Below are positions 2,362 through 49,700 of a stretch of DNA of 52,086 nt, piece by piece. The position numbers were made by a program, and so were the translations under genes. How positions within the stretch are numbered: the stretch's first letter is position 1; each line of letters starts with the position of its first letter. Origin of the DNA: a virus (taxonomy: Duplodnaviria > Heunggongvirae > Uroviricota > Caudoviricetes); IMG/VR virus record IMGVR_UViG_2698536618_000020, one strand, 5' to 3'. A model generated the notes under the pieces. It was not told the origin of the DNA and searched no databases. It was given only the letters and a program-made list of their open reading frames with translations.

Positions 2362-4430
2362 GATTTATCACCTTCGAAATTTTCAAGCCTGTTGGCAATC
2401 ATGATGGCGATATCAGGGATTGCTGGCGCTGTGGCTATACATGCGGGGTTGGCGCACAAACCATAGACGGCGGCAATCACGAGCTGTCTTTTCCAGTCGA
2501 GAGTTACTGGCTCAGAATTGGCGTCATCGCCGGACGTATCACTGCCTGGCTCGTTCTGAACAACGGTTTCGCCCTCCTGAGCGGCATCAACAGAGTTTTC
2601 CTGAATGATCTTCTCCTCAGTTTGTGCTGAGTCTTCTCCATCAGCGGCGTCATTTTCTCCAAAAGTTTCAGCGTAAGTTTCATCTCCCATTACTGGACCA
2701 CAGTCAGGGCAATGGCCGCCACCGTTCTGACTGCATGTGGTGCTAACCTTTTCCACTTCCTGTTGCATTACTGGCCCTGGCTGTTGCTCTTCTGGCCCGT
2801 TTTGTTGCGTATCCGGGCTGTTTTGTCCCGCTTCTGGGGCAATTTGTTCCACTTTGGGCTGATTCTGGTCCTCAGTGTCGCGAGTCTGGATCCCCTTCAC
2901 CCACTTCGGATCAGCAGGGTTACTGATGCCTTCAACGAATTCTCCACGCGAGGCAGCCAGTAATTTGTCGGCATCGACTGGATTTTTTGGGGGGATGTTT
3001 TCCCTGGCTTTATTGAGTTCCTCCCTCAGTTCCTGGTATTTCGTTTCTACAGATGAGACATTTTCCAGTGATTGCGTGTCCTCATTATGTTTAACTGGAA
3101 TTTCTTCCACTGATTCAGGCGCTGCCTGTTCATTAGCCATTGTGTCCGATGCTTGTTGCTTTTCTTCATCGCCATGTTTTCCTTCTGCTGTTCCGCGCTG
3201 CGGCATCGGTGCTGATGAGCGACCGCAGGCAATTTCCACGATTTCCGGATCCGGGTTAGCGTGATCGGTTTCGGTCAACACTTTGTTGAGATATTCAGTC
3301 ACGCGTGCCGGGATGGCCTCAATGCCGATTGGTGCTTCTTTCACGGAAGCCACCACAATGGCGCGGGAATAATCCAGCCCACCGGGCATGGCGATAAATT
3401 TGTCGCGAAAAACAGAAAAGGGCGGCTTATTCTCTGACACGATTTCTTCAACGCGTTTTGCGTGTGCTGGGTGCAGGTTATAAATATCCACATCCATTGA
3501 ACGGGCCAGAACGCCGGTGGCTACATCTCGTGCGAGTGATGTCTTATCATGTTTGAATCCTTCACCACGATCGGTAATATTTCCGCCGCCAGCGTTAGCA
3601 CCGGAAGGCGTACGGGTAATGCCTGAAACATAATTTCCGTTCTGCCATTCTTTTGTCAGCAGGCCCTGATCAAGGTAGTCAGTTTTCATCCAGGTGGAAA
3701 TGAACTTGTCGAATTCAGCCGGGCTGATGCGATGATTTGCAGAGTGGGGGAATGCTTTCCCTACAGATTCAGCCAGGCGACTAAGGTGATAGTTCGTCAG
3801 TTTATCCAGTTCATGATGCGCGGCGCGCACAGCAGTAAGCAGGCTCTGAAGGTAACTGTCCTCTGTGTCCATCTCCATACGGATCACGTTATTGCGTTGT
3901 TCTGGTGTGGCATGATGCCGGTATTTTCCATCTTCATCTTTGCTGAATAAGAAGAGGTGAAGGAAGCGATGAGTAAGGCTCAGAGTGGCGACGGGAATTT
4001 CACACTCAGAACAGTCATCGTCGCTGTCCGGGGATTCGCTTTTCTCCACATCATCCGGAATAGTTCCGTCCAGGTTATCGTTGTCATCGCCAGCAGTTGT
4101 GGCATCTTCACCGTTGATGTTGTCATCGAAGGGGATAGCCATCATGGTGATGCCATCGTTACCGCCTTTTTCATAGCGGTTGCAGAATTCAGTATCAAAC
4201 ACGCCTTCCGGTGGAAGGTCATTCACGACGGGGAAATTTACGCGAACGGGTTTTTTGAAATCATCCTCGTCGTAGCCTGCATCGTCCATGGCTGCAATGC
4301 AGCGGGAAACTGCGACAGAAAGTTTTCTGGCCTCGGTCCAGAAAAAACCGCCTTTGATGCCAAGGCGTTTTCTGACTTTATCGTTTTTTGCTTCGCAGTG
4401 TAGTGCAAAAGTCTGTTTATCAGCGCTCAT
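2358..4430 (-). CDS. large acidic hypothetical early protein (690 aa), function unknown
   Basis: 2073-nt uninterrupted ORF, ATGA-coupled to gam; long D/E/Q-rich low-complexity segments, two CxxC pairs ([16 protein letters not shown]), hydrophobic C-terminal segment; occupies the kil/cIII/ea10 slot of lambda. Confidence 0.7.
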
Positions 4431-4537
4431 TGTATTTAAATCTCTGGCTGGATTAGAATTAGCGGCCCTTTGTCTGATTTCTCCGAATACGGTGACGCAG
4501 GGAGAAATCCGGTAGCCTGCGCTGCCGGATTTTTATT

Positions 4538-4924
4538 TCAGTGGAAGGTTGCCTGGTTTGCTGTTTTGTGAGTTGTTTTTCCCTTTTCGTGCTGGCATTC
4601 AGGGCAGTCGCACTCAGAATTTTCTCTTGCAAACTCAAGAGCCTGTGCAAGTGTATGGATTTGTTGTACTCCAATGTTGCTTCTGACAACTTCACGTGCA
4701 GCATGAATATATGGGCTTGGTGTTTTGCCATTTAACCCACATAAAACAAAACGACTGTCCTTATATTCGTTATTTCCAACTTCTGTAAGCACTGAAAAAG
4801 AAAATACAAAGTCGATTTTGTATTCTTTGCATATTTTACTGATGCGTTCTGCAATTTCTTTGAGTTCATTTATTGCATCAGGACTGGTTTTGGAAAATAT
4901 TTCATTTTGCGCAAGTTCTTTCAT
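4538..4924 (-). CDS. hypothetical protein, AT-rich moron, C-terminal Cys cluster (CDCPECQHE)
   Basis: 128-aa ORF in visibly AT-rich DNA; same strand as PL operon. Confidence 0.5.
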   Translation of the reverse strand: MKELAQNEIFSKTSPDAINELKEIAERISKICKEYKIDFVFSFSVLTEVGNNEYKDSRFVLCGLNGKTPSPYIHAAREVVRSNIGVQQIHTLAQALEFARENSECDCPECQHEKGKTTHKTANQATFH

Positions 4925-5007
4925 TTTGATTTTTCCGTGATTGATAATTAATGCGGTTTTATTTCGGCTTGTCTGTTACAGATATGGAAGGTGTATTTTA
5001 TTACTCG

Positions 5008-5229
5008 TCACAACGACGCTGCTTTTACGGGTAAGCCATCGCGCCCGATGAAAACTTTAATCATGCAGTCGGTAATGCATGTTTTTGTTGTGAAGTTACG
5101 AATATAGAGTTTTCTCTTTTCAATATTGTTTGCTGAAGCGATATATGTCCGACCTTCATGAAGAACATAATCGCCAGGCGTCACGCACTGACGTGGTATT
5201 TCATCAGTTCCGAAGTGATGAGCAATCAT
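5008..5229 (-). CDS. hypothetical small protein
   Basis: 73-aa ORF from ATG with GGAG 6 nt upstream (longer GTG-start version ends 5247); AT-rich. Confidence 0.4.
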
Positions 5230-5402
5230 AATTATCTCCATTTTCACAAATGAACTTTGTTGATGCGGTGCCTGGTGCCTCCAGGTGACGTTAACCAGTT
5301 AACAACTAACGCCGGGTCAGGGGACGATGACTTTCCGTGACATCCTGTCGGTTTAACTGTTCCGCGTGCGCATAGCCGCATTCACCGCATCACAAAATTC
5401 AC

Positions 5403-5446
5403 TTTAAAAAGGGCGGACATCAGCAATCGGCAAACCGATGTCCGCC
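5403..5446 (-). terminator. intrinsic terminator within leftward early operon (tL-like)
   Basis: 10-bp perfect stem GGCGGACATC/GATGTCCGCC (5412-5421/5437-5446), followed on minus strand by TTTTTAAAG. Confidence 0.55.
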
Positions 5447-5685
5447 AAGGGCTACACACAGCAATGTTGTTATTCACAACCGGAAGCGCACGGTCGAAGA
5501 AATCTAACGACAAGCCTTCAATGGGTAAGAGTCTTCGCCGTGCACTTTCGTGTTGTACCCTGGCTTTCAGGGTAATGTCTGTTCAGTAAACTGAGAGTGC
5601 CGGAACTCACCCGTGTCCGGCGCACGATCTCCACCTCACCCGTGGAGAACTCCTCAACTACAAACCCCGTAAGGAGAGTGAATTT

Positions 5686-5895
5686 ATGACACAAGAAGAA
5701 AAAGTGATGTTTCTGATGCGGCTGGCTGTCGATACCTACAACACACAATTCAGGGAGAAAGATATACCTCAAAAGGCAGTTCCTGCCGCGGTAGATAAGG
5801 GCGGTGCTATTGCCGTATTTTACGATGCATTTGAATCATTTTTTGATGAAAAACTCGACGCTGTTAGCGACTTCGGAACATCGAGTAATAAATAA
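5686..5895 (+). CDS. hypothetical small protein encoded opposite to the PL operon
   Basis: 69-aa ORF, strong SD AAGGAGAG 7 nt upstream of ATG; 3' end overlaps 3' end of convergent minus-strand gene. Confidence 0.45.
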   Translation: MTQEEKVMFLMRLAVDTYNTQFREKDIPQKAVPAAVDKGGAIAVFYDAFESFFDEKLDAVSDFGTSSNK

Positions 5896-6223
5896 CGTTC
5901 ATTACGGTTCTTAAACAACAATCAGTGGGTTTGATGTTGTTCTTTTCAAGCTCACTTGCCATCACTTCCATTATTCTTGCACTTACACGAATTATTTGGT
6001 GGCTGTAAGCGACGCAACTGTCGCTGATATTGCTGTTTATTTCTATTACTTCATTTTCACTGGCGGCGCTAAATTTGGATATGCCGTTTCCATTGTCCTG
6101 TTTCAGTGCTTTTTCTGCCATCTGGATGCGTGTCAGCGTTGCGGAATTTGGGCTAAGTCGATAAACCTGTCTGGCATCTTCCAGAAGCAGGGCGATAATG
6201 TGCTTCAGTTCTGTTTCATTCAT
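5864..6223 (-). CDS. hypothetical early protein
   Basis: 119-aa ORF from ATG (MNETELKH...) with GGAG 6 nt upstream; longer frame extends to 6244. Confidence 0.45.
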   Translation of the reverse strand: MNETELKHIIALLLEDARQVYRLSPNSATLTRIQMAEKALKQDNGNGISKFSAASENEVIEINSNISDSCVAYSHQIIRVSARIMEVMASELEKNNIKPTDCCLRTVMNVIYYSMFRSR

Positions 6224-11998: not shown

Positions 11999-12409
11999 TT
12001 GCCGGAGGCGCTTATGGCGAAACCTTTTACACACGAACAGCGGGAAGAACTGAAGGCACGAATTATCGGATTGGTACGCAAAAATGAACGCATGACGATA
12101 TCGCAACTGGAGAGAGCGACGGGAGCAGGCTGGCATTCAGTCAGACGTTGCCTTGTGGATGTACTGGCTTGTGGCGATTTATACATGTCCGGTAAATACG
12201 GTGTTTTTGCATCAGAACAGGTGTATCGCGTATGGCGTAAGACACCGGAGAAAACAACTGACCAGACATTGATTCGAAAGTTACCAGACGGAGAAATTCG
12301 CCGCTACGATAGACGCCTGAACATAATCTGTCGCGAGTGCCGGAATAGTGAAGTTATGCAGCGCGTGCTGGCTTTCTATCAGGGGAATTTTCAGGAGGCG
12401 GTACTGTGA
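11999..12409 (+). CDS. hypothetical protein with HTH-like segment
   Basis: 136-aa ORF (alternative Met at 12014); directly follows previous gene. Confidence 0.5.
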   Translation: MPEALMAKPFTHEQREELKARIIGLVRKNERMTISQLERATGAGWHSVRRCLVDVLACGDLYMSGKYGVFASEQVYRVWRKTPEKTTDQTLIRKLPDGEIRRYDRRLNIICRECRNSEVMQRVLAFYQGNFQEAVL

Positions 12410-12465
12410 GTAAATTAGCTATCAGGCTTCAATTGTCGCTGGCATTCGCATCAAAGGAGAATGAG

Positions 12466-13050
12466 ATGACCACTTTTACAAAAGAGCAGTTAATCAGTCA
12501 TGTTAGTGAAAATGTAAAGGCGATGAAATTTGCAGTAAAACAGACAGCATTCAAAAATTCTCTCGAGGCAATTGAGTTGGATTTAGCACTGGCCCTTGTT
12601 GCTCAGGCTTCGCTGGAAGCAGAGCCCGTGCTTTATATGAATCGATTTACCGGAAAGACATTCTCACTGGAAGAGCAACCCGGTGCTGATAAGGAACCGG
12701 AAATATACGTGCCGCTATATGCTGCCCCGCCAGACAGCGCCGCCATGCTTCAGGCTGGAAACTTTCGGGAAAAGAAGGGTTCGTCAACCAATAATTTTCG
12801 GGAAATCTCGGAAACGTCAACCAACCATCCGGTAACTCTGGATGGTTGGATAAGCTGTAGTGAGCGAATGCCGGATGACGGTCAGCACGTAATTATTTTA
12901 TGTGATGGCGCATTCGTTCTTTATGCGCAATATCGAGACGGTGAGTTTTTTGATGTAGTCCGTGATGGTGATGAATTTTTCGAAACACAGAGCCGCAATG
13001 TAACCGACTGGATGCCGCTACCAGAACCGCCGCAGGAGGTGCGCCAATGA
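12466..13050 (+). CDS. DUF551-like phage protein
   Basis: 194 aa from ATG with AAAGGAGA SD (longer GTG frame from 12406); C-terminal 'WISCSERMPDDGQHVIILCDGAFVLYAQYRDGEFFD...VTDWMPLPEPP' resembles DUF551. Confidence 0.6.
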   Translation: MTTFTKEQLISHVSENVKAMKFAVKQTAFKNSLEAIELDLALALVAQASLEAEPVLYMNRFTGKTFSLEEQPGADKEPEIYVPLYAAPPDSAAMLQAGNFREKKGSSTNNFREISETSTNHPVTLDGWISCSERMPDDGQHVIILCDGAFVLYAQYRDGEFFDVVRDGDEFFETQSRNVTDWMPLPEPPQEVRQ

Positions 13051-13130
13051 ACTGGCCTGAAGCATTTGCAATTACAGGCGTTGCTATGGCTATCACTTTT
13101 TTAGTATATGTTATTTGTCGGTGGGGGTAA
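13047..13130 (+). CDS. small hydrophobic peptide (27 aa) MNWPEAFAITGVAMAITFLVYVICRWG
   Basis: ATG overlaps upstream stop (ATGA); GGAGG SD 8 nt upstream; single predicted TM helix; not in supplied ORF track because under 60 aa. Confidence 0.4.
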   Translation: MNWPEAFAITGVAMAITFLVYVICRWG

Positions 13131-13165
13131 AAACGTTCGCCGGGATTAACACCAAAGGAGGGAAT

Positions 13166-13270
13166 ATGTCGGATGATATATCACTGGCAATGGAAGGTGC
13201 GCTGGCTGTTGTTGCTGTTGTGGGCGTTTACTGCCTGGTTGTGTTTTTGATGGATCGACTAGGGAACTGA
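13166..13270 (+). CDS. small hydrophobic peptide (34 aa) MSDDISLAMEGALAVVAVVGVYCLVVFLMDRLGN
   Basis: AAAGGAGGG SD 5 nt upstream of ATG; single predicted TM helix. Confidence 0.4.
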   Translation: MSDDISLAMEGALAVVAVVGVYCLVVFLMDRLGN

Positions 13271-13515
13271 ATTCATTACGATATGGGAATTCCCATATCG
13301 GGTAAAAACGGTTTGCGGTAAAGCGAGAGTTAAGTAGAATTGCTGCGGGTGCTTGAGGCTGTCTGCCTCGGGCATGCCACCGTAAGGCAGACAGAGAAAA
13401 GCCCCAGTTAACATTACGCGTCCTGCAAGACGCCTAACATTAATCTGAGGCCAATTTCATGCTAGACACATGTAGGTTAGCCTCTTACGCGCCGAAAGGC
13501 AAGGAGAAGCAGGCT

Positions 13516-13671
13516 ATGAAGCAGCAAAAGGCGATGTTAGTCGCCCTGATCGTCATCTGTATTACCGTCATTGTGACGGCACTGGTAACGAGGAAAGACC
13601 TCTGCGAGGTACGAATCCGAACCGGCCAGACGGAGGTCACTGTCTTCACAGCTTACGAACCTGAGGAGTAA
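13516..13671 (+). CDS. hok: Hok/Gef-family type I toxin
   Basis: 51 aa 'MKQQKAMLVALIVICITVIVTALVTRKDLCEVRIRTGQTEVTVFTAYEPEE', matches E. coli HokD/RelF as I recall it; AAGGAGAAG SD; longer in-frame upstream ORF (13459) is Mok-like. Confidence 0.85.
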   Translation: MKQQKAMLVALIVICITVIVTALVTRKDLCEVRIRTGQTEVTVFTAYEPEE

Positions 13672-13740
13672 GAGACCAGGCGAGGGAGAAATCCCTCGCC
13701 ACCTCTGATGTGTCAGGCATCCTCAACGCACCCGCACTTA

Positions 13741-13762
13741 ACCCGCTTCGGCGGGTTTTTTC
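13741..13762 (+). terminator. intrinsic terminator after hok
   Basis: ACCCGC-ttcg-GCGGGT hairpin followed by TTTTTTC. Confidence 0.7.
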
Positions 13763-13880
13763 ACGTACTGTGGTTGTGAATACGATCGGTATTAGGCTAT
13801 GCTAACAACATTAGCCTGACTAATTTTGTATTGACTTGATTTTTGTTAAAGAACAGGACGGAGAAGTAAGGGTACACCCA

Positions 13881-14060
13881 ATGAGCTACGCACTAAAAAA
13901 ACACCCGCGATTGACTATTCCCCCTCGCGATAAAAGCGTTGTGGCAGCTCCGCGCCCGGCTATCGATGAAAATTGCACTCATCGTGAGCAGGTGAAAAAT
14001 GCTTTCGATTTCGGTTTTTCTCGTTACGAGAAGGCAATGGAAGAACTTTCAAAAGTGTAA
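13881..14060 (+). CDS. putative antitoxin partner of Doc-family toxin (unassigned fold)
   Basis: 59-aa ORF from ATG (longer TTG frame from 13836), ends 18 bp before toxin start; no similarity to Phd recognised. Confidence 0.4.
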   Translation: MSYALKKHPRLTIPPRDKSVVAAPRPAIDENCTHREQVKNAFDFGFSRYEKAMEELSKV

Positions 14061-14078
14061 TGATGGGTATTGTGCTCT

Positions 14079-14564
14079 ATGGCTGAGATTGTTGAAGGAG
14101 TGCACTACCTTTCGTTTGATGATCTTACCGAAATTAATCGCCTTTTAATTGAGCTTCAAACACCAGATGAACCTGTTAGTGTGCTGAGTGTTGATAATTT
14201 AAGTTCTTCTCAGTCTCGTCCCAGCATGGTTCGATGGTATGAACAGACTAATGACATGTTTGTACTGGCATCAGTATTGATTGAAAGTCTGATTCAGAAT
14301 CATCCATTTGCTAATGCAAACAAACGAACAGCTATGATGGCTGGTTATGTCTTCTTGTTGTTGAATGGCTATGAGTTAACAGCACCAGGCGATGAAATCG
14401 TGGAAATGGCAGAGGGACTGGCCTGCAAAACCTATACTCGAGAAGATCTCGAGAACTGGTTGTGTTATTGGTCTCGTGCGTATGACAGCCGGGAATTATG
14501 TAAAACAGGCGCAACTATTGTTTTGTATGAAACTATCAAGCTTAAAATAGAACAGCAAAACTAA
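14079..14564 (+). CDS. doc: Doc-family (Fic fold) toxin
   Basis: 161 aa; Doc-type motif HPFANANKRTAMMAGYVFLLLNGY (HxFx[ND][AG]NKR). Confidence 0.8.
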   Translation: MAEIVEGVHYLSFDDLTEINRLLIELQTPDEPVSVLSVDNLSSSQSRPSMVRWYEQTNDMFVLASVLIESLIQNHPFANANKRTAMMAGYVFLLLNGYELTAPGDEIVEMAEGLACKTYTREDLENWLCYWSRAYDSRELCKTGATIVLYETIKLKIEQQN

Positions 14565-14577
14565 AGGTGCTTCTAAT

Positions 14578-14605
14578 GAAAACCCGCTTCGGCGGGTTTT
14601 GTTGT
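14578..14605. terminator. bidirectional intrinsic terminator between convergent doc and higA-like genes
   Basis: AAAACCCGCTTCGGCGGGTTTTGTTG; A-run and T-run flank hairpin. Confidence 0.7.
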
Positions 14606-14614
14606 ATTGGAGTA

Positions 14615-14932
14615 TCATGATATTACCTGGATTCCGTTTTTCTCTACGACTGAAAGAAGGCGAAGAGCGGCACCTCCCGGCCGTTTTACACCACGTTCCC
14701 AGTCTGATATCAGGTTTTTACTGACGTTGAGGTATCTGGCAAAAACAGGTTGAGACAGATGCTCTCGTTCGCGCAGTGCACGGATCCTTTCCGGAGACAT
14801 TACCGGCGCTGGCTGGAGACAAGTTTCATCGAATTCTCGCATAGTCTGTTTCGTTACTGCGCCGATATCATGAAGCGATTCCATCATTTCATGTACGGAT
14901 GCAAGCGCATCACTGCGGTAATTTTTACTCAT
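14615..14932 (-). CDS. XRE-family HTH antitoxin (HigA-like)
   Basis: 105 aa; C-terminal HTH 'LSQPVFARYLNVSKNLISDWERGVKRPGGAALRLL'; GGAGG SD; immediately downstream of RelE-like toxin gene. Confidence 0.75.
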   Translation of the reverse strand: MSKNYRSDALASVHEMMESLHDIGAVTKQTMREFDETCLQPAPVMSPERIRALREREHLSQPVFARYLNVSKNLISDWERGVKRPGGAALRLLSVVEKNGIQVIS

Positions 14933-14979
14933 TGGGTACCTCCGTAAACTGACCCTGTAGAATCAGTTGTGCCAGTTGT

Positions 14980-15294
14980 TCATCTGTTAGATTGAGTACG
15001 TGAGGAGCCCCTTCCGAAATGCACTTCCTCAGTAGCGGTTATATTTTCACGTTCATTTTTTGCGTATGCATATACGAAAAAGGCCCTTGTGCCGACGCGA
15101 TAGAAAATGATTGTGCGATAACCGCCAGATTTGCCGCCACCGACTCGTGGCAGACGTTGCTTGATAACGCCGTTACCCAGGTTTGCTGAGATAAGCCCGT
15201 TATCAGCCTGTTTAACAATTTCGCGCAGTGACTGGTCGGATATTTTGTTTTTGCGTGCAAATCGCTCAAACCAGGCGTTTTTAAAAATGCGCAT
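14980..15294 (-). CDS. RelE/ParE-superfamily toxin (HigB-like / DUF1044-like)
   Basis: 104 aa from ATG (longer frame to 15357); motif 'RLPRVGGGKSGGYRTIIFYRVGTRAFFVYAYAKNERENI'; toxin-then-antitoxin order; palindrome TAACAC-ATA-GTGTTA just upstream (15315-15329). Confidence 0.7.
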   Translation of the reverse strand: MRIFKNAWFERFARKNKISDQSLREIVKQADNGLISANLGNGVIKQRLPRVGGGKSGGYRTIIFYRVGTRAFFVYAYAKNERENITATEEVHFGRGSSRTQSNR

Positions 15295-15638
15295 TTTTTG
15301 TTCCGTTATTAATGTATAACACATAGTGTTACATTGCGTAGGGATCTGCAATGCCATCAGTTTGACAACGTCGCGTATCCGGGATTATATTCATCGCACG
15401 CCAGCAAAATCTGGCGTCGGGATTAGGAACCCCGGATAGAAACCGCGACAGAGACACGCCGCGAGCGTGTTTTTTATTGTCGTATGCACACGCACATCTG
15501 AATTATGGTGGGGCGTATAGGGGAGCTGAAAAGCTCGCCGGTTGGTTTCCCGGTAGTTCCTAACCCTGTACGTCTCGCCACCCGATGATTAGGAACCTGA
15601 CGGTGGTGATAGTTTAGAAACCACTCGAGGGCGTCATT

Positions 15639-16310
15639 ATGACAACTCAAGTTTCTGTTGAAACACTCTCCACGATTACTTACAAGCAGATCCCCGTTAT
15701 CACTACCGAACTTTTGGCGCACCTTTACGGCACAGAAGCTATTCGTATTCGCCAGAATCACCACGAAAACAAAGGTCGTTTCATTGAGGAAAAACACTTC
15801 TTCAAACTTGAAGGTGAAACTTTACGTGAGTTCAAGCACAGAGTAGCTTTTAACTACTCTGTGAAAATTGCCCGTAACGTTCGCTCCCTCATCCTATGGA
15901 CAGAACGCGGCGCAGCCCGTCACGCAAAAATGCTCGAAACTGATCAGGCGTGGGAGGTATTCGAAAAACTGGAAGACTGCTATTTCAGCCAGGGAAAAAC
16001 AGCACCAACCGAACAGCAGCCGCAGATTCAGCCACAATTCACAGCCGAAGAAATCATCCTCCTTTGCTACATGCAGCTCTGGATGGAAAAAGCCCAGGAC
16101 CTCAGCAAACACCTGTATCCCATTATGAAAGAGCTGAACTCCTCATACACGAACAAGCTGTATGACATTGCGTTTGAGACCATCTACATGGTGACGAAGA
16201 ACAGAGACGCGCTACTAAGGGAGGTAACACGTCTCGACATGTCAAGTTCCATTATCCAGCGGGCCATGCCAATGCTGAAAAGCCTGCGGGCAAGACAATT
16301 TGAATTCTGA
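15639..16310 (+). CDS. ORF6N/KilA-N-like domain protein (putative antirepressor-type regulator)
   Basis: 223 aa; N-terminal 'ITYKQIPVITTELLAHLYGTEAIRIRQNHHENKGRFIEEKHFFKLEGETLREF' resembles ORF6N domain. Confidence 0.6.
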   Translation: MTTQVSVETLSTITYKQIPVITTELLAHLYGTEAIRIRQNHHENKGRFIEEKHFFKLEGETLREFKHRVAFNYSVKIARNVRSLILWTERGAARHAKMLETDQAWEVFEKLEDCYFSQGKTAPTEQQPQIQPQFTAEEIILLCYMQLWMEKAQDLSKHLYPIMKELNSSYTNKLYDIAFETIYMVTKNRDALLREVTRLDMSSSIIQRAMPMLKSLRARQFEF

Positions 16311-17636: not shown

Positions 17637-17830
17637 TGAATGCTAAAATTCAAACGATACCTGAATTACTGATCTGCACCAGGGGAAATCAGACAGAAGT
17701 CGCCAGAATACTGAACTGCAATCGTGCTACAGTCAGAAAATACATTGATGATAAAGATGCGAAAAAGCACGCCGTCGTCAATGGCGTCCTTATGGTTCAT
17801 CGCGGATGGGGTAAAGATACTGATGCGTGA
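17633..17830 (+). CDS. ninH: NinH
   Basis: 65 aa; '[42 protein letters not shown]' matches lambda NinH. Confidence 0.8.
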
Positions 17831-18257
17831 TATCCGGCAGGTTCTTGAGCGCTGGGGGGCATGGGCGGTAAATAACTATGAGGATGTTACATGGTCGCCC
17901 ATTGCTGCCGGATTTAAGGGACTGATCCCCGAAAAAGTAAAATCACGTCCACAGTGCTGTGACGATGATGCGATGGTGATATGCGGGTGCATAGCCCGCC
18001 TTTACCGGAACAATCGCGATCTGCATGACTTGCTGGTTGATTACTACGTGTTGGGGGAGACGTTCATGGCGCTGGCACGGAAACATGGGTGCTCTGACAC
18101 CTGTATAGGTAAACGCCTTCACAAAGCGGAGGGGATTGTTGAAGGCATGCTGATGATGCTGGGAGTGAGGCTTGAGATGGATCGGTATGTTGAGCGTGAA
18201 TTGCCGGGAGGGAGAAGCTCTGTATTTTATCAGCGAAAAAATAGTTTACGATCGTAA
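17823..18257 (+). CDS. Q: late antiterminator Q (933W/Q21-like type, not lambda Q type)
   Basis: 144 aa from ATG overlapping ninH stop; '[24 protein letters not shown]...[16 protein letters not shown]' as recalled for Q of Stx-phage type; last gene before late leader. Confidence 0.75.
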
Positions 18258-18304
18258 AAATCTGCATATCATGATAAGAGTGGTTACATTGCCACGCAGC
18301 CGAA

Positions 18305-18327
18305 CCCGCCGATGCGCGGGTTTTTTT
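18305..18327 (+). terminator. tR'-like terminator of short late leader transcript
   Basis: CCCGC-cgat-GCGGG hairpin followed by TTTTTTT, about 50 bp after Q stop. Confidence 0.65.
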
Positions 18328-18506
18328 GTACCCAGAATCCTGTGAGCTATACGGAAAGTACACAGAAAGGAAGGTACGACCGCAATTAATAACAAAATCT
18401 TAAAAATCTCATATGGCACTATTAGTTTTCTAAATATTGTATATTTTAAGTATTGCAGGATAACCCTGTAACGAAGTTTGCGTAACAGCATTTTGCTCTA
18501 CGAGTT

Positions 18507-18537
18507 TGCCAGCCTCCCCTGGTGGCTGGCTTTTTTT
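18507..18537 (+). terminator. second intrinsic terminator in late leader
   Basis: GCCAGCC-tcccctggt-GGCTGGC + TTTTTTTGT. Confidence 0.65.
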
Positions 18538-19022
18538 GTATCCGTTCAACGGGAATGTTACATACCTCACAATTAAGTCAGTTGAATGTTGTCTGCCCGG
18601 ATGAGAATTTGTTAGAAAAAACTGCATGGTGAATCCCCCTGAGCGGAGGGGCGACTGGTGACGGTATAATCTCTGATTATCAAAACGAGAATGACGCGGG
18701 TTTAGTGGCACCGGGCTGAACTCACCGGGAGGCACCCGGCACCATGCAATGGCACATAGCGCCACTCTCCAGCCCCTCTCCGGAGGGGCTTTCTTATGGA
18801 CAAAAAAGCCCGCGCTGGGAGACGCGGGCGGCAAGGAATGAACAATGAAACGTGAAGTAATATTTCAGCTGGCGAATAATACCCCATAGTAATCACTCTG
18901 CGCAACTGCGCGACCTTTTTCGAATTGCGGGCTGTAGTCTCCCTTCTGCCATTGTCCTGTAACTTCCGGACTTCAGCCCGCTCCTTATTTTACTCACAAT
19001 ATTATCCCGGCCGGGAGGATTC

Positions 19023-20933
19023 ATGACATTTAAACACTATGATGTTGTCAGGGCGGCGTCGCCGTCAGACCTTGCGAAACGAATAACTCAAAAACTGAAG
19101 GAAGGGTGGCAGCCTTATGGTAGTGCGCTGATTTCGACAGCTGGTTATGGTGCGGAGTTCATCCAGCCAGTTGTGAGTGAGGGGAGCATCTCATCACCAG
19201 AGGAGCCAGGCAACCGTCCGACGACCTCAGCGCCTTCTGTTGCGCCAGAATATTACTATGTGATCGCGCTTGCTGGTCAGTCCAATGGTATGTCATACGG
19301 TGAGGGACTGCCATTACCGGATACATTCGACAGCCCTGATCCACGTATTAAACAGTTAGCGCGTCGCAGTACGGTGACACCGGGCGGTGCAGCATGCAAA
19401 TATAACGACATCATTCCGGCGGACCATTGTCTGCATGATGTGCAGGACATGAGCCGTCTTAACCATCCGAAAGCGGACCTGTCAAAGGGGCAGTACGGAA
19501 CCGTGGGGCAGGGGCTGCATATCGCCAAAAAACTGCTGCCGTTTATACCGGCGAATGCGGGCATTCTGCTGGTTCCGTGCTGTCGTGGTGGTTCAGCGTT
19601 CACCACCGGAGCTGATGGCACATACAGTGACGCGAGTGGCGCCTCGGAGAATTCAACCCGCTGGGGTGTGGACAAGCCGCTGTATAAGGACCTTATCGGT
19701 CGAACAAAAGCGGCACTGGAGAAGAACCCGAAAAATGTGCTGTTTGCCGTGGTGTGGATGCAGGGGGAATTTGATTTTGGCGGTACGCCGGCAAATCATG
19801 CCGCACAGTTTGGTGCGCTGGTTGATAAATTCCGTGCAGACCTGGCGGATATGGCAGGCCAGTGCGTCGGTGGCTCTGCTGGCGGTGTTCCCTGGATATG
19901 CGGGGACACGACGTATTTCTGGAAGCAGAAGAACGAATCCACGTACCAGACGGTGTACGGCAGCTATAAAAATAAAACGGAAAAGAATATCCATTTCGTA
20001 CCGTTCATGACCGATGAGAACGGGGTGAATGTGCCGACGAACAAACCGGAAGAAGACCCGGACATTCCAGGTATCGGTTATTACGGTTCGAAATGGCGTG
20101 ACAGCTCAGCCACCTGGACGTCACAGGACAGGGCGAGCCATTTCAGTTCATGGGCTCGCCGTGGGATTATTTCCGACCGTCTGGCAACGGCGATTCTGAG
20201 CTGCGCGGGTAAGTCTTCTGCGTTTGTTAATGGTACTGCCGGGGTGGTTGTTCCAGACAGACCGGTTACCACCTCAGAGTCTGTAATTTTTTACGATGCC
20301 AAAAAAGCTACAGACAATCAGCTGAAACCCTATGGCTGGGACGGCATGTATGGCAGACGCACACTGGTTGATGACAGCGGCAATAAAGCTCTGCGAATTG
20401 AGAAAAATAACAGCGCGAAATCCTGGTCAATGTACTGTGATATTGCTGCAGACAAGGCAAAACTTTTACTGGAAAAAGGCGGAGAAATTGCTGTCCGGTT
20501 TAAAATCCCCGAAAACGTCAATCTTGAGACAACCAGAAACAAGTATGCCTTTGGTTTGTACTGGCGAATAGCGGAATGGCCGGGTGAGGGTGGTGAAGGC
20601 CATCTGAGTTCTTTCTTTGTCCAGACAGATAAAGCCAGTATTAATGTTGCATACCATCATACAGTTAATCAACAAAAAGAACTTGGCACGTTTGGCGCAT
20701 TCGACCATGACTGGCATACGCTTGCATTTAAATTTAAGGGCAGTAACAGCATTAATGTTACTCCGGTGCTTGATGGTGTGGATGGACAGGCGTTTGACCT
20801 GGTGAAATGGGCCAATACTGCTAATGGACTCAACAGGTTTGTCATTACGGATATTACAGGTAGTGCAGAAACCTACCCTGTACTTATTGATACGGTGGAA
20901 GTTAAAGCAAACAAAGCTGGAGCAGCCGCATAA
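19023..20933 (+). CDS. nanS-p: NanS-p-like sialate O-acetylesterase (prophage-encoded)
   Basis: 636 aa; N-terminus MTFKHYDVVRAASPSDLAKRITQKLKEGWQPYGS as recalled for Stx-prophage NanS-p/DUF1737; central SGNH/SASA-like region; position between Q and lysis genes. Confidence 0.75.
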   Translation: MTFKHYDVVRAASPSDLAKRITQKLKEGWQPYGSALISTAGYGAEFIQPVVSEGSISSPEEPGNRPTTSAPSVAPEYYYVIALAGQSNGMSYGEGLPLPDTFDSPDPRIKQLARRSTVTPGGAACKYNDIIPADHCLHDVQDMSRLNHPKADLSKGQYGTVGQGLHIAKKLLPFIPANAGILLVPCCRGGSAFTTGADGTYSDASGASENSTRWGVDKPLYKDLIGRTKAALEKNPKNVLFAVVWMQGEFDFGGTPANHAAQFGALVDKFRADLADMAGQCVGGSAGGVPWICGDTTYFWKQKNESTYQTVYGSYKNKTEKNIHFVPFMTDENGVNVPTNKPEEDPDIPGIGYYGSKWRDSSATWTSQDRASHFSSWARRGIISDRLATAILSCAGKSSAFVNGTAGVVVPDRPVTTSESVIFYDAKKATDNQLKPYGWDGMYGRRTLVDDSGNKALRIEKNNSAKSWSMYCDIAADKAKLLLEKGGEIAVRFKIPENVNLETTRNKYAFGLYWRIAEWPGEGGEGHLSSFFVQTDKASINVAYHHTVNQQKELGTFGAFDHDWHTLAFKFKGSNSINVTPVLDGVDGQAFDLVKWANTANGLNRFVITDITGSAETYPVLIDTVEVKANKAGAAA

Positions 20934-43734: not shown

Positions 43735-46700
43735 ATGGCTTATTCCGATGAACAGCGCCCTGAAGCGCAATTTGGCAACCAGAGCCGCAACAGCCTGAAC
43801 ATTCAGCAGCCGGGAGAGACTGACAGCTATGATGTGTTTTTCTCCGATCCCAATCGCTGGAAGGACAACAGCACGTCGTTCAGCCTGGGCGATGTATTGC
43901 CAACTATGGGGAAAGGTGTCGCCCAGTCCGTCCGGGGGACAGGGGAAATGGCCCGTGGACTCGGTGATGCGATGATTCAGAGCCCGGTAAAAACAGGGGC
44001 ACGTATTTTAAATGAGTTCAGCCGTATGGGGCTGCCGGGAGTAGCAACTGTTCAGGATATTTTTGTCGGTGGCAGCAAGGGGGCGGATGAGGTCATCGAC
44101 ACTCTGCCTGATGGAAAAAATGCGGTTACTGATACTGTCGGTAAAGGTCTGAAGGTCACAGGCAAGGCAGTCAGTGGCGGCGCTAAAGCCTCGGATGAAT
44201 GGCTGACTGGCAAGATGTCGCCGGGGGCGCAGCGGGCGCTGAATACACCGATGACTGAAGGATATGATGATTCAGCGGTCTGGGTAGCGAAAGGGGTTAA
44301 CCTGATTGGTGCGCTTGTACCGGATATGGTTGCAGGCGGTGTGACTAAAAAGCTGGGTGATGTCACTCTGCGAAAAGTGCTGACCGCCGGGCTGGAGAAA
44401 AAATACATCGCGGCAGGGATGCAGCCGGAAAGAGCCACAGCACTGGCAGCCGAAGCTGTCGATAAAAAAATGCCGGATTTTTTCCAGGCAGGCCTGATCA
44501 CCCATTCCACTGTCAGTGCGCAAGGGCGGAGTGCAATGGCAGCGGCAGATGCTGTTCTTAACGCGGATTATTCTGAGCTGGCGAAGTCACCGAAATTTCA
44601 GCAGACCTTTTTGTCAATTGATGCAGATCCGCAGCACGCGCAGCTTACTGACCGCCAGAAAATGGACCTGGCAAAAGAGCGTGTTGCCGATGAGGTGCGT
44701 GCGCAACTGGCAACCGATCCTGAATTGCTGGCTGTGAATGCCATGGCGGCAAAACTGGGCGATGCTCAGTTGCTTAATCTGGCGATGCGGGGCACGGCGA
44801 AGACCGTTAAAAGCGGCATTGTCAGAAATGCCACGGAACAGGGGACGATTAATGCGGCGCAGGGTGGCTATTCACGCTATCAGGAAAACACGGCATTGCG
44901 TGAGACCGCCGGAATGGATGTGTCACCGTGGGAGGGCGTGGCTGACGCAACGATCGAAGGTGCAGCCCTTGGTGCTGCAATGGGGGCACCATTCGGTGCG
45001 GCTGCCGGATATCGTGGAAAACGTCAGGCGGCAGATGAAGCAGCCATGCGTGAGGCTGAAAGCGTTCCTCAGGACGAATCGGCTCCGCAACCCGAACCGG
45101 TTGATCCGGTGGCACAGCATCGTGAATCTATGCAGGGGATGAATCGCGAGCAGCTTCTGGAACAGTATGCTGATGCGGATATGGCACATGAGGGAGACAC
45201 GTCTGCCGTTCATCGCCGGGAAGCCGCCAGCCAGCTGTTGAATGAACTGGATGAACAGGCGAAGCGACAGGCGGTGATGGATGAGCTGAAGGCGAAGCCG
45301 CGCCCTGAACTGCTTGAGGAATACCGAAAACTCAGCCAGAAGGAAGGGCGTACTGATACTGAAGAGCAGCAGTTACAGGCAATACGTGATGTGCTTCGCC
45401 CTCAGCGGGAGGCCAGACCGGAGGCACAGCCACAGCCGGAAAATGCGGATGATGGCGACGGGAGTATTTACCCGACGGTGCGGTTCCGCGATCCGGATGA
45501 AGTTCGTATTGAAATTAACGAGAGTGGTGCGTCCAGACCAGCAGAACGCATTGAAAAGGTGCGTCCGGACAACCGTTATTTCACGGATGAAAAAAGTGCT
45601 CTGGGGAGCGACGTTTTCCGCAATGCCAGCGCCACCGGCCTGAAACCGTCCGTAGTGAAGAAAGGCGAGAATCAGTATGCCGTTGAAATGGATAATCCTG
45701 CGTTCTCTGAAGATGTGGCAACGGAGACCATTAACACTCTGGCTGACGGAGAGCGTATTACTGATGCTGATCCGATGGAACAGCCCGCGTTCATGCGTGA
45801 CCCGCGATTCCGTGGTTTTACGGGGGATGATACAGAAGTGCAGGCCCGTCTTGCCCGTGGCAACGCGCCGACGGCGGAAGAACTGGTGCGTTCCCAGATG
45901 GCTGAAGGTGATGCCGGTCCGACAGCACAGGAGTTAACTGAGCGTCCACGCCTTCCCGCTCCCGGCGATATTCATCCCGGACAGGGATATCCGTTACCAG
46001 GAGAAGTGGCGCGTACGCCGGATGAAAATCAGGCCGGACGTGGTGGTCGTTTTACCACAACCGGTGAGGTGAAGGGCCAGAGTTTCCAGAAAGGACGTGC
46101 GCAGGCACCGGAAAATGCCGCTGGTCGCCAGGGGGAAATACTGGAGGGCGAAACAGTTCGTCGTGGTCTGCCGTCACCGGATGAGCAGAACGCCACAGCA
46201 CCAGTGCGTGAAGGACTTCCTGCACCTGAAAGTCAGCGTGGGGTTGATATGCCACAGCCTGAATCACTCCCTCGTATGGTTCGTGACTCCCTTCCGGAAC
46301 TGGCACAGCAGGCAGAAGCACGCAGACAGACCGGGGATAATCGCCAGACCATAACCGATGTTCCGGATACTGAGGTGCCGGTGCCGGTAGATAAACCGAG
46401 CACTCACCAGCAGGTGCGTGGTGCGAAAATTGAAGACTTTGGCGAGGAGATTAAGGGCGCGGCAAAACACCGTTATGCGCAGCTTGCTGAAGCTATGGGT
46501 AAAACGCTGGAGGATGGGGAGTACGCGACACAACCACTGAGCAAACTGTTTCCAAAGCCGGATTATGCCCGTCTGGAAAAAGAAGGTGTGGATAGTGACA
46601 CGCTGGCAATGATGGCGTTGTATCGCAGTGAAATTCCCACCAGAACAAGCCGTAACATGCAGAAATGGATCAGCATTGTTAAAAGCGGTCGCGAAGCTAC

Positions 46701-49700
46701 TGCCGGTATGCTGGAGGGGAAAATTCCGGCAGCGAAACTGGCTGATATGATGGACAGTAAGCCGGGGTTACGGAGCATGTCGGATACCTGGAAACTGCTC
46801 CGTACGCTTTCTGCATTGCAGATTGATAAAGCATCCGGCTATCGTGTCAGGTCCGGTGTTTATTCGTTTGTCGGGGGAAAACGTTACGATCCGCCGCAAA
46901 TGATGTATTCGCTTCGTGATAGCAAGGGGCGCGACCTCTTTTTCTCGGAAAGCCGGGATGAGTTACTGAAAAAGGCGAAAGCATATTTCGATGAACAAGG
47001 CTCCAGAGAAAGGGAAACGCCAGCAACCTCTGCTGATGACAGAATAACCTTTGACGTGTACCGGCATAAGGCCAGTGGCGACATTTTTATCGGTTATGGC
47101 AAAAACAGGCAGAAACTGAAGGGCGGTTTTGAGTCTGCCCGTGATGCACATGATTATGTGCGCACACATCGTGATGAGCTGGTTAATCAGGTGAAGGCGC
47201 TGCGTGAAGTCTCGCGTGAGGAGCAGCGTAACGCCACCAACCGCGATCGTACCGGACCAGAACGCCGCAAGGGGGATGTTTCGCCGGAGCAGTTCAGTGA
47301 TGCGTTTGGTTTTCGTGGTGTGCAGTTTGGTAATTATGTGGAAAGTCCGCGTCGTCAGGCTGATTTGAACCGGGCTTATGACTCGCTGCATGACCTGGCT
47401 GACGTGCTGAACGTGCCGACAAAAGCGCTTTCTCTGAACGGTCGTCTTGGGCTTGCTTTTGGTGCCCGTGGTAAGGGTAAGGCGGCGGCACACTATGAGC
47501 CGGGTGAGGTGGCAATCAACCTGACAAAAGGTAACGGACCGGGGGCGCTGGCCCACGAATGGTTCCATTCACTGGATAATTATTTTGGTCGTTATGATGT
47601 TTCCACTGACGGGAAGATCACGTCAGGTGGCGACTATATGACGGAAGCACAGCGTGCCGGGCGCGTATTTAAAGACGGCAGGTATGTTGATGCGGAATAT
47701 CCGGTACGTCAGGAGGTTTACGACGCGTTTAAAGGCGTGATGAAAGCCATTAACAGCAGTGACATGTTGCGTCGTTCTGAACGCCTGGATGGCGTTCGTT
47801 CAAAACCGTACTGGTCAACGGATGTTGAAATGGCGGCGCGAGCCTTTGAGCGTTATGTTCAGGATAAAGCGCGTATGGCTGGCGTGGAGAATGATTATCT
47901 GGTCAATATCCGTAAGGCACCTGAGCACAACACAGATAACACCTGGGCTTATCCGACGAATGCGGAACTGGATGGCGGTATTCGTGATGCATTCGATCAC
48001 CTGTTCAGTACGCTGAAAACCCGTGAGACGGACAAGGGCGTTGCGTTTTATTCCCGTAAGGGCGTGACCCGCACACCTGAAGGCAATCTCATTTCGGATG
48101 TTAACCGCAGTGCGGAAGCCAAAGGCAGCCCGGTCCCGCAGGTTGAAGCGGTTGCCCGTGGCGTGATGAGTGGCATTAAGGACAGTGACCTGAAGGTCCG
48201 CGTGGTGAAGTCACAGAAAGAGGCTGAAGCGCTGGCGGGTGAATCGTTCGACGGTTACGGCAGGGTGCATGCGTTCTATCGTCCGGATAAACGTGAAATT
48301 GTCCTGGTGGCGGATAACATCCCTGACGGGCGGACCGTTCGCGAGAAGCTGCGTCACGAGATTATCCACCATGCAATGGAGCATGTAGTCACGCCAGCGG
48401 AATATCAGACGATTATTAAGACCGTGCTGAAAACCCGTGACAGTGATAACGCCACCATCCGTGAAGCCTGGCGTAAGGTTGATGCGTCTTATGGTAAGGA
48501 ATCACCGGAAGTGCAGGCGGGTGAATTTCTGGCACATATGGCGGAGAAACAGCCGAATAAATTTGTGGCGGCGTGGGAGCGTGTTGTTGCCCTGGTCAAA
48601 GGGGTACTGCGTCGCACGGGGTTACTGAAGCCGACAGAGCTGAACGATATCAGACTTGTTCGCGAAACTATTCGCACGTTAGGCCAGCGTGTGCGGGAAG
48701 GTTACACGCCGCGTGAGGATGGCGCTGGCGCATCGTCTCAGTACTCCCGTAGCGGTAAGCCTGATCCGTTCAAAGTGCCGGAAGGTGAGGGCGAGCGTTA
48801 TCGTGATGACCTTGCCAGAATGATGAAGTCTCTGCGCTCAACGGATTTAACGGTAAACATCGGGCGTACGCCGCCGGTATTGCGTCACCTTGGCGCACCA
48901 GATTTGCCGCTGGTTATCTCCCGCGACACTGTGCGTAAGGCCACCAATGGTGTGAAACATGTGGTGCCGATGGATGTTATCGAGAGACTACCGGAACTGA
49001 TGCACGATCCGGATGCAATTTACCGCTCAGCGACAGAAAGAAATGCGGTTGTGATGCTGCTTGATGCCGTGGATAAAAATGGTGATCCGGTGGTGTCAGC
49101 GGTACACATGAAGGCTGTCCGGTCGCGTCTGGAAATCAACAAGGTAGCTTCTGTTTACGGTACAGAAAATGGAAAAAAACTGAAGAGTATGGAAATGACC
49201 GGGTTAACGTTGTACCGGAGAGAAAAATTAAGCCGCGATAACCTTCTGCACAGAGGGCTCCAATTGCCCAAAGGGGAACATTCTTATCGCGGCTCTGCGG
49301 ATAAAATACTCTATCCTGAAGATATTCGCAAGGGGCCGCATTACTCCCGTACCAGCAGTCTGACACCGGAAGAGACAATTGCATCGCGTTTTGTGCGCCA
49401 GATGCAGGATAAATTCCAGGTGCTGAAAGCTGTTCAGGAGAATATCCGTAAAACTGGCGGAAAAATAGACGACAGTAACAACGCTTATATGGCGGAAGAA
49501 CTCTTCCACGGGAAGGCGGAAAACGACCTGAACGTGATGAAGGAGCGCTACGTTCAGCCACTGGCTAAATTACTGGCGGACTACAAAATTGCGCAGGCCG
49601 ATCTGGATGAGTACCTCTACGCCCGTCACGCGCCGGAACGTAACGCGCATATCGCGAAAATCAACCCGAAAATGCCGGACGGCGGTTCGGGGATGACCAA

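Follow-up and report, generated by a model that had tools for sequence, protein, structure and literature searches.

The window analyzed here is a 52,086-nucleotide (nt) stretch of a Caudoviricetes virus (IMG/VR record IMGVR_UViG_2698536618_000020). It was confirmed to contain a cluster of toxin–antitoxin genes between the replication-associated genes and ninB of a lambda-like Escherichia coli prophage. Our main finding concerns the gene directly upstream of doc in this cluster, whose product of 59 amino acids (aa) is probably, judging from its conserved pairing with doc and its predicted structure, a minimal single-helix Doc antitoxin unrelated to Phd. As to the cluster as a whole, we consider it likely that at least three cassettes, each acquired on its own, came together as a mosaic at a variable site between the replication and nin genes and that they serve overall in selfish addiction or stabilization. 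The families and sequences in the cluster are already catalogued and largely ordinary, and the under-described element is the 59-aa partner of Doc. The original prediction for this DNA, which had expected any novelty in the combination and in the unassigned partners rather than in the individual families, proved correct for this gene.

The 59-aa protein as a candidate antitoxin of Doc

Doc in the window (161 aa) is a member of the Fic-fold family. It matched TIGR01550 (DOC_P1; E 1.3e-35, 122.2 bits against a cut-off of 38.65), Pfam Fic (E 3.1e-11) and phrog_577 (Doc-like toxin), and its gene is intact, including the HPFANANKR motif. The nearest solved structures were those of Enterococcus faecalis Doc (9vzc, E 1e-12) and phage P1 Doc (E 1e-4), and the exact protein was present on at least 1000 contigs. 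Doc would be expected to act as a kinase that phosphorylates EF-Tu and thereby blocks translation.

The 59-aa protein corresponds to phrog_2208, a family of unknown function, and carries the annotation 'hypothetical protein' in those E. coli genomes that were examined. Neither this protein nor 36 relatives matched Pfam or NCBIfam, the family profile had no match among PDB sequences, and a Foldseek search with the predicted model returned no match, a single helix carrying no fold signal. The family is very small. In a set of 5.8 billion proteins it formed 17 clusters at 90% identity, and in one of 1.84 billion it had 39 representatives at E ≤1e-3; three of its variants were each found on at least 1000 contigs.

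Analysis of gene neighborhoods revealed that this family is closely tied to doc. In every diverged, sufficiently long locus from confident family members, the 59-aa gene was located 3–18 nt upstream of doc. Such loci were distributed over at least eight genera or contexts with different flanks each time; the identity of the 59-aa protein was 45–80%, and that of the partner Doc to the window Doc was 66–75% where measured. The pair was found within a tail/baseplate module in Ewingella, beside hok, parDE and vapBC in Salmonella and beside dinI-umuDC on one metagenomic contig, with further loci in Serratia, Providencia (four loci), Morganella, Kluyvera and two deeper metagenomic relatives.

The architecture of the protein is simple. 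Its N-terminus is disordered and variable except for a conserved IPxRDK motif, and its C-terminal part is an amphipathic helix (residues 34–57, QVKNAFDFGFSRYEKAMEELSKV), in which the last 23 residues are almost invariant among close family members. In the deeper family set the helix pattern was retained and the sequence was more variable. An AlphaFold 2 (AF2) model predicted one C-terminal helix with a predicted local distance difference test score (pLDDT) >90, and a continuous hydrophobic face of this helix could be read from the sequence. A conserved helix with a hydrophobic face is the pattern expected of a toxin-binding antitoxin.

It should be noted that the 59-aa protein was found not to be a cognate antitoxin of the Phd/YefM family. 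Comparison with P1 Phd gave an hhalign probability of 1.4%, which indicates no relationship. In addition, no DNA-binding fold was predicted in the AF2 model, and the (S/T)xxxE(G/N) inhibitory-helix motif of Fic antitoxins was absent when the sequence was read for it. These observations (no similarity to Phd, PDB chains or Pfam families, no DNA-binding fold and no inhibitory motif) could also be explained if the protein were an accessory factor of Doc, such as a regulator, a chaperone or a second effector, with Doc itself controlled otherwise. We regard this as quite improbable, given that the gene is kept strictly upstream of doc with a gap of 3–18 nt in unrelated contexts, and that its product, in which one conserved amphipathic helix is joined to a disordered stretch, is as small as a type II antitoxin and is organized like one. 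As an antitoxin, the 59-aa protein would most likely neutralize Doc through its invariant C-terminal helix, as Phd does despite the unrelated sequence.

We further lean towards the view that phrog_2208 founds an undescribed class of minimal Doc antitoxins, built from one invariant amphipathic helix and a disordered IPxRDK N-terminus without a DNA-binding domain. Among the phages and prophages of Enterobacterales, such proteins would move together with Doc in a self-contained cassette, which in the window would have been dropped precisely into a shared bidirectional terminator. If the 59-aa protein is an antitoxin, it represents a very small, non-Phd way to neutralize a Fic-fold kinase and provides a name for a 'hypothetical protein' gene.

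Organization of the cluster and its variable cargo site

The prophage is 933W-like and stx-negative and has no tRNA genes. DnaC-like ATPase, DUF1627, DUF977 and DUF551 genes lie to the left of the cluster, and an antirepressor gene followed by ninB, ninE, rusA, ninH and Q lies to the right, a gene order that matches the RefSeq annotation of the closest relative. Between the DUF551 gene (12406–13050) and a strong rightward promoter at 15362, seven coding features including one pseudogene were identified (Table 1). The original prediction had described a compact toxin–antitoxin island here. All of its listed elements were found in their places, but the RelE-like toxin is frameshifted and the small open reading frames (ORFs) could not be tied to a toxin–antitoxin function; its right edge, given as 15335, is better replaced by the toxin start codon at 15294 plus the promoter region.

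Table 1. Positions of genes, transcripts and the terminator hairpin in the cluster
Feature	Position	Strand	Remarks
27-aa hydrophobic ORF	13047–13130	+	ATG overlaps the DUF551 stop
34-aa hydrophobic ORF	13166–13270	+	Strong Shine-Dalgarno sequence
Full-length hok mRNA (predicted)	13347–13765	+	Terminator hairpin at 13740–13765
Sok antisense RNA (predicted)	~13397–13467	-	Position transferred from annotated sokW of 933W by an indel-free alignment
mok / hok	13459–13671 / 13516–13671	+	Pfam HOK_GEF, E 2.9e-22
59-aa ORF	13881–14060	+	No Pfam or NCBIfam family
doc	14079–14564	+	TIGR01550, 122 bits (cut-off 38.65); motif HPFANANKR
Bidirectional terminator hairpin	14579–14603		Between doc (+) and higA2 (-); 20-nt core at 14581–14600
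Helix-turn-helix (HTH) antitoxin, 105 aa	14615–14932	-	Pfam HTH_3
PF06296 'RelE' toxin pseudogene	14925–15294 (start 15294)	-	PF06296, E 1.4e-37

The sequence of this region is well represented in databases. A 2.8-kb query (12900–15700) matched a prophage from the O104:H4 outbreak lineage of E. coli at 99.5% identity. Of 5426 complete E. coli genomes, 33 contained at least 80% of this query and 4776 contained parts of it. Names from the Prokaryotic Genome Annotation Pipeline already exist for several products (hokD, death-on-curing family toxin, RelE/ParE family toxin and HTH protein). By exact-sequence look-up, all products of the window except that of the 27-aa ORF were already in the protein collection, and the Doc, 105-aa antitoxin, Hok, 59-aa and 34-aa proteins each occurred on approximately 1000 contigs or more. 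The whole cluster was found in none of the records in a search of the phage collection.

Comparison with other prophages by blastn revealed recurrent breakpoints at 13023/13033, 13759, 14581 and 14626, and the region may be divided into three segments. Segment A (~13033–13759) comprises two conserved genes for probable small membrane peptides and an apparently complete hok/mok/sok type I module, segment B (13760–14600) a moron with its own terminator, in which the 59-aa gene is followed by doc, and segment C (14581–15333) the HigB2/HigA2-like type II module. An exact 20-nt repeat of the terminator hairpin core, located at 13740–13759 (hok) and 14581–14600, brackets the 841-bp cassette with the 59-aa gene and doc. 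One other prophage (L026) has this hairpin once, with hok and higA running towards it from either side and no doc between them, and the doc cassettes of other genera end in similar terminator hairpins of their own. The 841-bp cassette is inserted into a terminator common to hok and higA, and the 20-nt repeats suggest cassette insertion or recombination at terminator hairpins.

The cargo at this site varied considerably among prophages. Two of them (L018 and L019) carry DUF551, an ORF of the 27-aa type, a 34-aa ORF and hok, without doc or higBA, and the cargo of L026 is hok plus higBA. Two others (L020 and L024), with both flanks shared at ~89–90% identity, lack DUF551, hok and doc; in their place stand two unknown genes, an additional HTH gene and higBA in intact form. 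Such differing cargo in syntenic prophages, together with the recurrent breakpoints, marks the site as genuinely variable in its cargo, and the 'island' is not a unit but has accumulated from separate pieces. The presence of three unrelated toxin families at a moron hotspot, as originally predicted, was supported, a syntenic Salmonella prophage (L005) carrying yet other cargo. The case illustrates how toxin–antitoxin cassettes accumulate and decay at one lambdoid site, with boundaries that can be given to the nucleotide.

The hok/mok/sok module

The 51-aa ORF of Hok is intact and matched Pfam HOK_GEF (PF01848, E 2.9e-22) and phrog_251 (E 5.4e-32), and mok (13459–13671) is in frame with it. The Rfam sok model RF01794 scored 116.9 bits at 13347–13521 (gathering score 59); because this match lies in the sense orientation and ends at the AUG of hok, it describes the hok leader rather than Sok. 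A consensus promoter scan of the window found no promoter for hok, sok or doc. By eye, TTGCGG-16-TAGAAT at 13313–13340 could be read as a hok promoter and TTGCCT-17-TAACCT at 13502–13474 as a sok promoter, both having been missed by the scan.

The RNA elements of the module also appeared to be complete. The 5' tac element of hok, GGGUGCUUGAGG, is predicted to pair with the 3' fbi element, CCUCAACGCACCC (13722–13734). In the predicted minimum-energy fold of the hok mRNA, nt 1–12 are paired with this same fbi sequence near the 3' end (z = -7.2), and the closure of the two ends in this fold is the tac–fbi pairing typical of hok mRNAs. The predicted Sok RNA folds into a long hairpin (z = -6.0). 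Two weak Rfam matches, one to isrK at 13680–13761 and the other to rsmX/istR at 14513–14603, were both dismissed as reflections of terminator hairpins and the hok 3' untranslated region (UTR).

The hok segment is ~92% identical to hokW/mokW/sokW of phage 933W. For this homolog, the toxicity of Hok and its neutralization by Sok have been shown experimentally, and HokW was found to increase after mitomycin C treatment and to aid lysis and phage release after induction, phage defense being outside the scope of that study (PMC8621323). By analogy, the behavior of hokW-sokW offers the best guide to the function of the module in the window. A stable hok mRNA would be held closed by the tac/fbi end pairing, and the short-lived antisense Sok RNA would block translation of mok and hence of hok. 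Decay of Sok, on loss of the element or SOS induction, would then allow the Hok peptide to harm the inner membrane.

The HigB2/HigA2-like module

The RelE/HigA-like pair of the original prediction is present where it was placed, and it could be specified as HigB2/HigA2-like, but its toxin is not intact. The toxin belongs to the RelE superfamily (PF06296, E 1.4e-37; the match spans profile positions 1–95 of 120) and adjoins the HTH antitoxin on the minus strand, with the toxin gene first and the antitoxin gene overlapping it. Its best solved relative was HigB-2 (E 0.003). An AF2 model of an intact E. coli allele (P0001, pLDDT 86) superposed on HigB2 of Vibrio cholerae (VcHigB2) with TM scores of 0.56–0.63, which confirms a RelE-like fold for this intact allele only and not for the window allele. 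The antitoxin (105 aa) is intact, carries a C-terminal HTH_3 domain (Pfam E 1e-7), belongs to phrog_2104 and was found as an exact protein on at least 1000 contigs. V. cholerae HigA-2 was its best match among PDB sequences (E 7.9e-8, residues 45–99, the HTH half) and has the same overall length; the N-terminal segment of ~44 residues is presumed to neutralize the toxin. VcHigB2 is a ribosome-dependent mRNase that is neutralized by the disordered N-terminus of HigA2 (PMC5416850).

Compared with an intact 123-aa allele, the toxin gene of the window lacks one A at 15025–15026 and one C between 15009 and 15010. The product is in frame from the ATG at 15294 to approximately residue 90 and continues with 13–14 out-of-frame residues to a premature stop at 14980–14982. 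The two 1-bp deletions thus remove the conserved last 33 residues, the conserved tail LNLTDEQLAQLILQGQFTEVPNE now sitting in another frame. Intact family members have 123–124 aa, and the part lost in the window includes the invariant or near-invariant residues F93, A96, A97, H99, L101, L103, I112, G115, Q116 and E119 and the predicted elements H87–101, H105–113 and E117–119. The ancestral toxin stop (14925–14927) overlapped the ATG of the antitoxin (ATGAGTAA at 14925–14932), and intact loci show an 8-nt overlap.

Inactivation of this toxin was not confined to the window, whose 104-aa product was found on 118 contigs. Three different combinations of frameshifts were observed: that of the window; that of ML35 and phage PhiR12_3, in which an A is missing in the run at 15248–15252 and the invariant N-terminus is lost; and that of O104:H4, which combines the lesion in the A-run with the missing C. 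ML35 had been considered as an intact reference for the toxin and was rejected, its 112-aa annotation concealing the A-run frameshift that deletes the invariant N-terminus. Among the 15 cluster members listed, the intact 123-aa toxin occurred on ~900 contigs and shortened forms of eight lengths on ~580, and two variants of the 105-aa antitoxin were each present on at least 1000 contigs. The ribosome-dependent mRNase toxin of this module would thus be disabled by frameshifts, and the intact HTH antitoxin probably still represses its own promoter and could neutralize related toxins elsewhere in the genome. Repeated loss of the toxin with retention of the antitoxin makes this locus a tidy example of toxin–antitoxin degeneration, and this pattern could be used to ask whether it is a regulatory or an anti-addiction function that keeps orphan antitoxins in place.

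A third gene, encoding a 101-aa HTH_3 protein (90 aa in L023), follows the antitoxin gene in the loci with intact higB2 (L020–L025). The window lacks this gene, and there the doc cassette lies directly against the 3' end of the antitoxin gene.

Stabilization, defense or decay

The gene identities, their states of integrity, the conserved pairing of the 59-aa gene with doc, the mosaic boundaries and the RNA folds were observed here; from them we infer the toxicity, neutralization and regulation of the modules and the biological role of the cluster. The cassettes would act as selfish addiction or stabilization elements, and hok, like hokW, probably also contributes to the killing or lysis of the cell when the prophage is induced.

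Several points weigh against this interpretation. The weakest member of the 59-aa family (P0256, E 1e-4) was the sole exception to the pairing, with no doc after it, and the consensus scan found no promoter for the 59-aa-doc cassette in the window. That toxin–antitoxin modules stabilize an integrated prophage is an assumption taken over from plasmid systems. Finally, the residues that align with the catalytic ones of VcHigB2 (R60, Y75/Y77 and K79) are still present in the truncated toxin, so that residual activity of the 104-aa product is unlikely but possible; the C-terminal helix of VcHigB2 is not catalytic (PMC5416850).

It could be proposed that the modules are decaying hitch-hikers without present function, the broken higB2-like gene being the first visible step and hok and doc being silent or neutralized relics. 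In E. coli K-12 most of the hok loci on the chromosome are inactive, the HigB2-like toxin has been inactivated repeatedly and in various ways across lineages, and no doc promoter was found in the consensus scan, all of which would fit such a process. However, hok, mok, the putative sok promoter, the predicted tac/fbi pairing, the catalytic motif of Doc and the 59-aa gene are all undamaged, with no or almost no differences among the hundreds to thousands of contigs that carry them, and the small ORFs show an excess of synonymous changes. General decay therefore seems rather unlikely to us, and stabilization remains the preferred role.

The original prediction had interpreted the cluster as a candidate abortive-infection or superinfection-exclusion module. 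On a defense reading, toxins released on infection by another phage would abort the infection and protect the lysogen population. Such a role is conceivable, since the cluster occupies a variable accessory site where toxin–antitoxin cargo is swapped between prophages, and since several toxin–antitoxin systems, including hok/sok of plasmid R1 against T4, can exclude phages. We scanned eight proteins (the seven island proteins and the neighboring antirepressor) against PADLOC-DB v2 and found only weak matches, of the Fic core to PDC-S23 (E 0.002) and of generic HTH domains to RmrA and a control protein; Hok, the 59-aa protein, the HigB2-like toxin and the small ORFs had no match in this database. 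With no match to a PADLOC defense model beyond these generic HTH and weak Fic similarities, the defense reading found no support here. Moreover, one of the three modules, the HigB2-like one, is pseudogenized by the frameshifts in its toxin, a state that had been named beforehand as speaking against defense, and the nearest studied homolog, hokW-sokW, aids lysis by its own prophage (PMC8621323). We therefore consider a defense island doubtful and favor addiction or stabilization.

Small hydrophobic ORFs and neighboring features

Two small hydrophobic ORFs precede hok. The start of the first (27 aa, MNWPEAFAITGVAMAITFLVYVICRWG) overlaps the TGA of the upstream DUF551 gene in an ATGA. Full-length homologs with 52–67% aa identity were found in ~90 phage records directly after DUF551/Ea22/EaA genes, and the 933W homolog sits between L0139 and hokW; compared with this homolog, the ratio of non-synonymous to synonymous changes (pN/pS) was ~0.42. 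This ORF is not annotated in RefSeq relatives, and its exact sequence is absent from the protein collection. The second (34 aa, MSDDISLAMEGALAVVAVVGVYCLVVFLMDRLGN) has an AAGGAGG Shine-Dalgarno sequence 4–5 nt upstream, and its V16I variant is annotated as hypothetical protein WP_001278450.1. The exact 34-aa sequence occurred on ~1000 or more E. coli contigs, and the DNA segment in 732 of 5426 complete genomes. Compared with its most diverged copies (92% identical), six synonymous and 2–3 conservative changes were counted (pN/pS 0.11–0.17). No match to it was found in Pfam, PHROG or PADLOC, nor by tblastn in the phage collection. Both ORFs probably encode real, conserved small membrane proteins. 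The possibility that they are type I toxins was rejected: neither an antisense RNA nor family evidence accompanies them, and the 27-aa ORF follows DUF551/Ea22 genes in many phages.

A perfect 22-bp palindrome, CGATATGGGAATTCCCATATCG (13279–13300), separates the 34-aa ORF from the hok promoter, and a 16-bp core of it is retained in the diverged copies of L018 and L019. A T-run was seen after it on neither strand, so that a role in protein binding or, as a hairpin, in processing is possible.

To the right of the cluster (15362–16310), a near-consensus promoter, TTGACA-18-TATATT, diverges from the toxin pseudogene and is followed by a1/b1 target sites plus isrK (69 bits), a C4 antisense RNA (66 bits) and an ORF6N/P22_AR_C antirepressor gene. 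Together these elements form a c4-ant module of the P1 immI-like or Gifsy-1 isrK type, which was also seen alongside the higBA block in phage PhiR12_3 and in several E. coli prophages, with two different positions in the genome among them. Further downstream, a match to the STnc100 small RNA (165 bits) was found at 18596–18801, after the Q antiterminator gene. Within 17724–20933, neither tRNA nor stx genes precede the SASA-family esterase gene, which makes this a Stx-phage-like prophage without the toxin. A very long ORF (43735–52086, >2783 aa) runs off the end of the window.

Comparison with known systems

The hok block is most similar to hokW-sokW of Stx2 phage 933W and Sakai prophage Sp5, with ~92% nucleotide identity across the 27-aa ORF, hok leader, mok, hok and 3' UTR and the same mok/hok/sok layout. 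The two differ in position, since the hokW block is found by L0139/L0140, close to the opposite end of the 933W genome record, whereas the block of the window follows the replication genes. In addition, the 27-aa ORF and the hok promoter are separated in the window by an extra ~175 bp, in which the 34-aa ORF and the palindrome lie.

The HigB2/HigA2-like module resembles higBA2 of V. cholerae in that the toxin gene comes first and overlaps the antitoxin gene, the model of the intact toxin superposes on HigB2 (TM 0.56–0.63), and the antitoxin has the same length and the same plan of an N-terminal segment followed by a C-terminal HTH. However, the relationship is distant (~20% identity). The window family (PF06296) has a longer conserved C-terminus, the window toxin is frameshifted, and intact E. 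coli loci possess the 101-aa HTH protein as a third gene.

With phd-doc of phage P1 and Phd-Doc of E. faecalis (9vzc), the doc cassette shares a Doc-family toxin of Fic fold, the HxFx(D/N)(A/G)NKR motif and a small gene immediately upstream. In contrast, the upstream protein of the window is outside Phd/YefM and any described family and has no predicted DNA-binding domain, and its Doc is ~30 residues longer than P1 Doc at the C-terminus.

In the Salmonella enterica lambdoid prophage L005 (~3496–6009), hok, the 59-aa-doc cassette, parDE and vapBC are adjacent to one another and lie downstream of a DUF1627 gene. This prophage thus has the same neighborhood as the window, with hok beside the 59-aa-doc cassette (73% nucleotide identity), but its hok is on the opposite strand, and where the window has higBA2 it carries parDE and vapBC as third and fourth modules.

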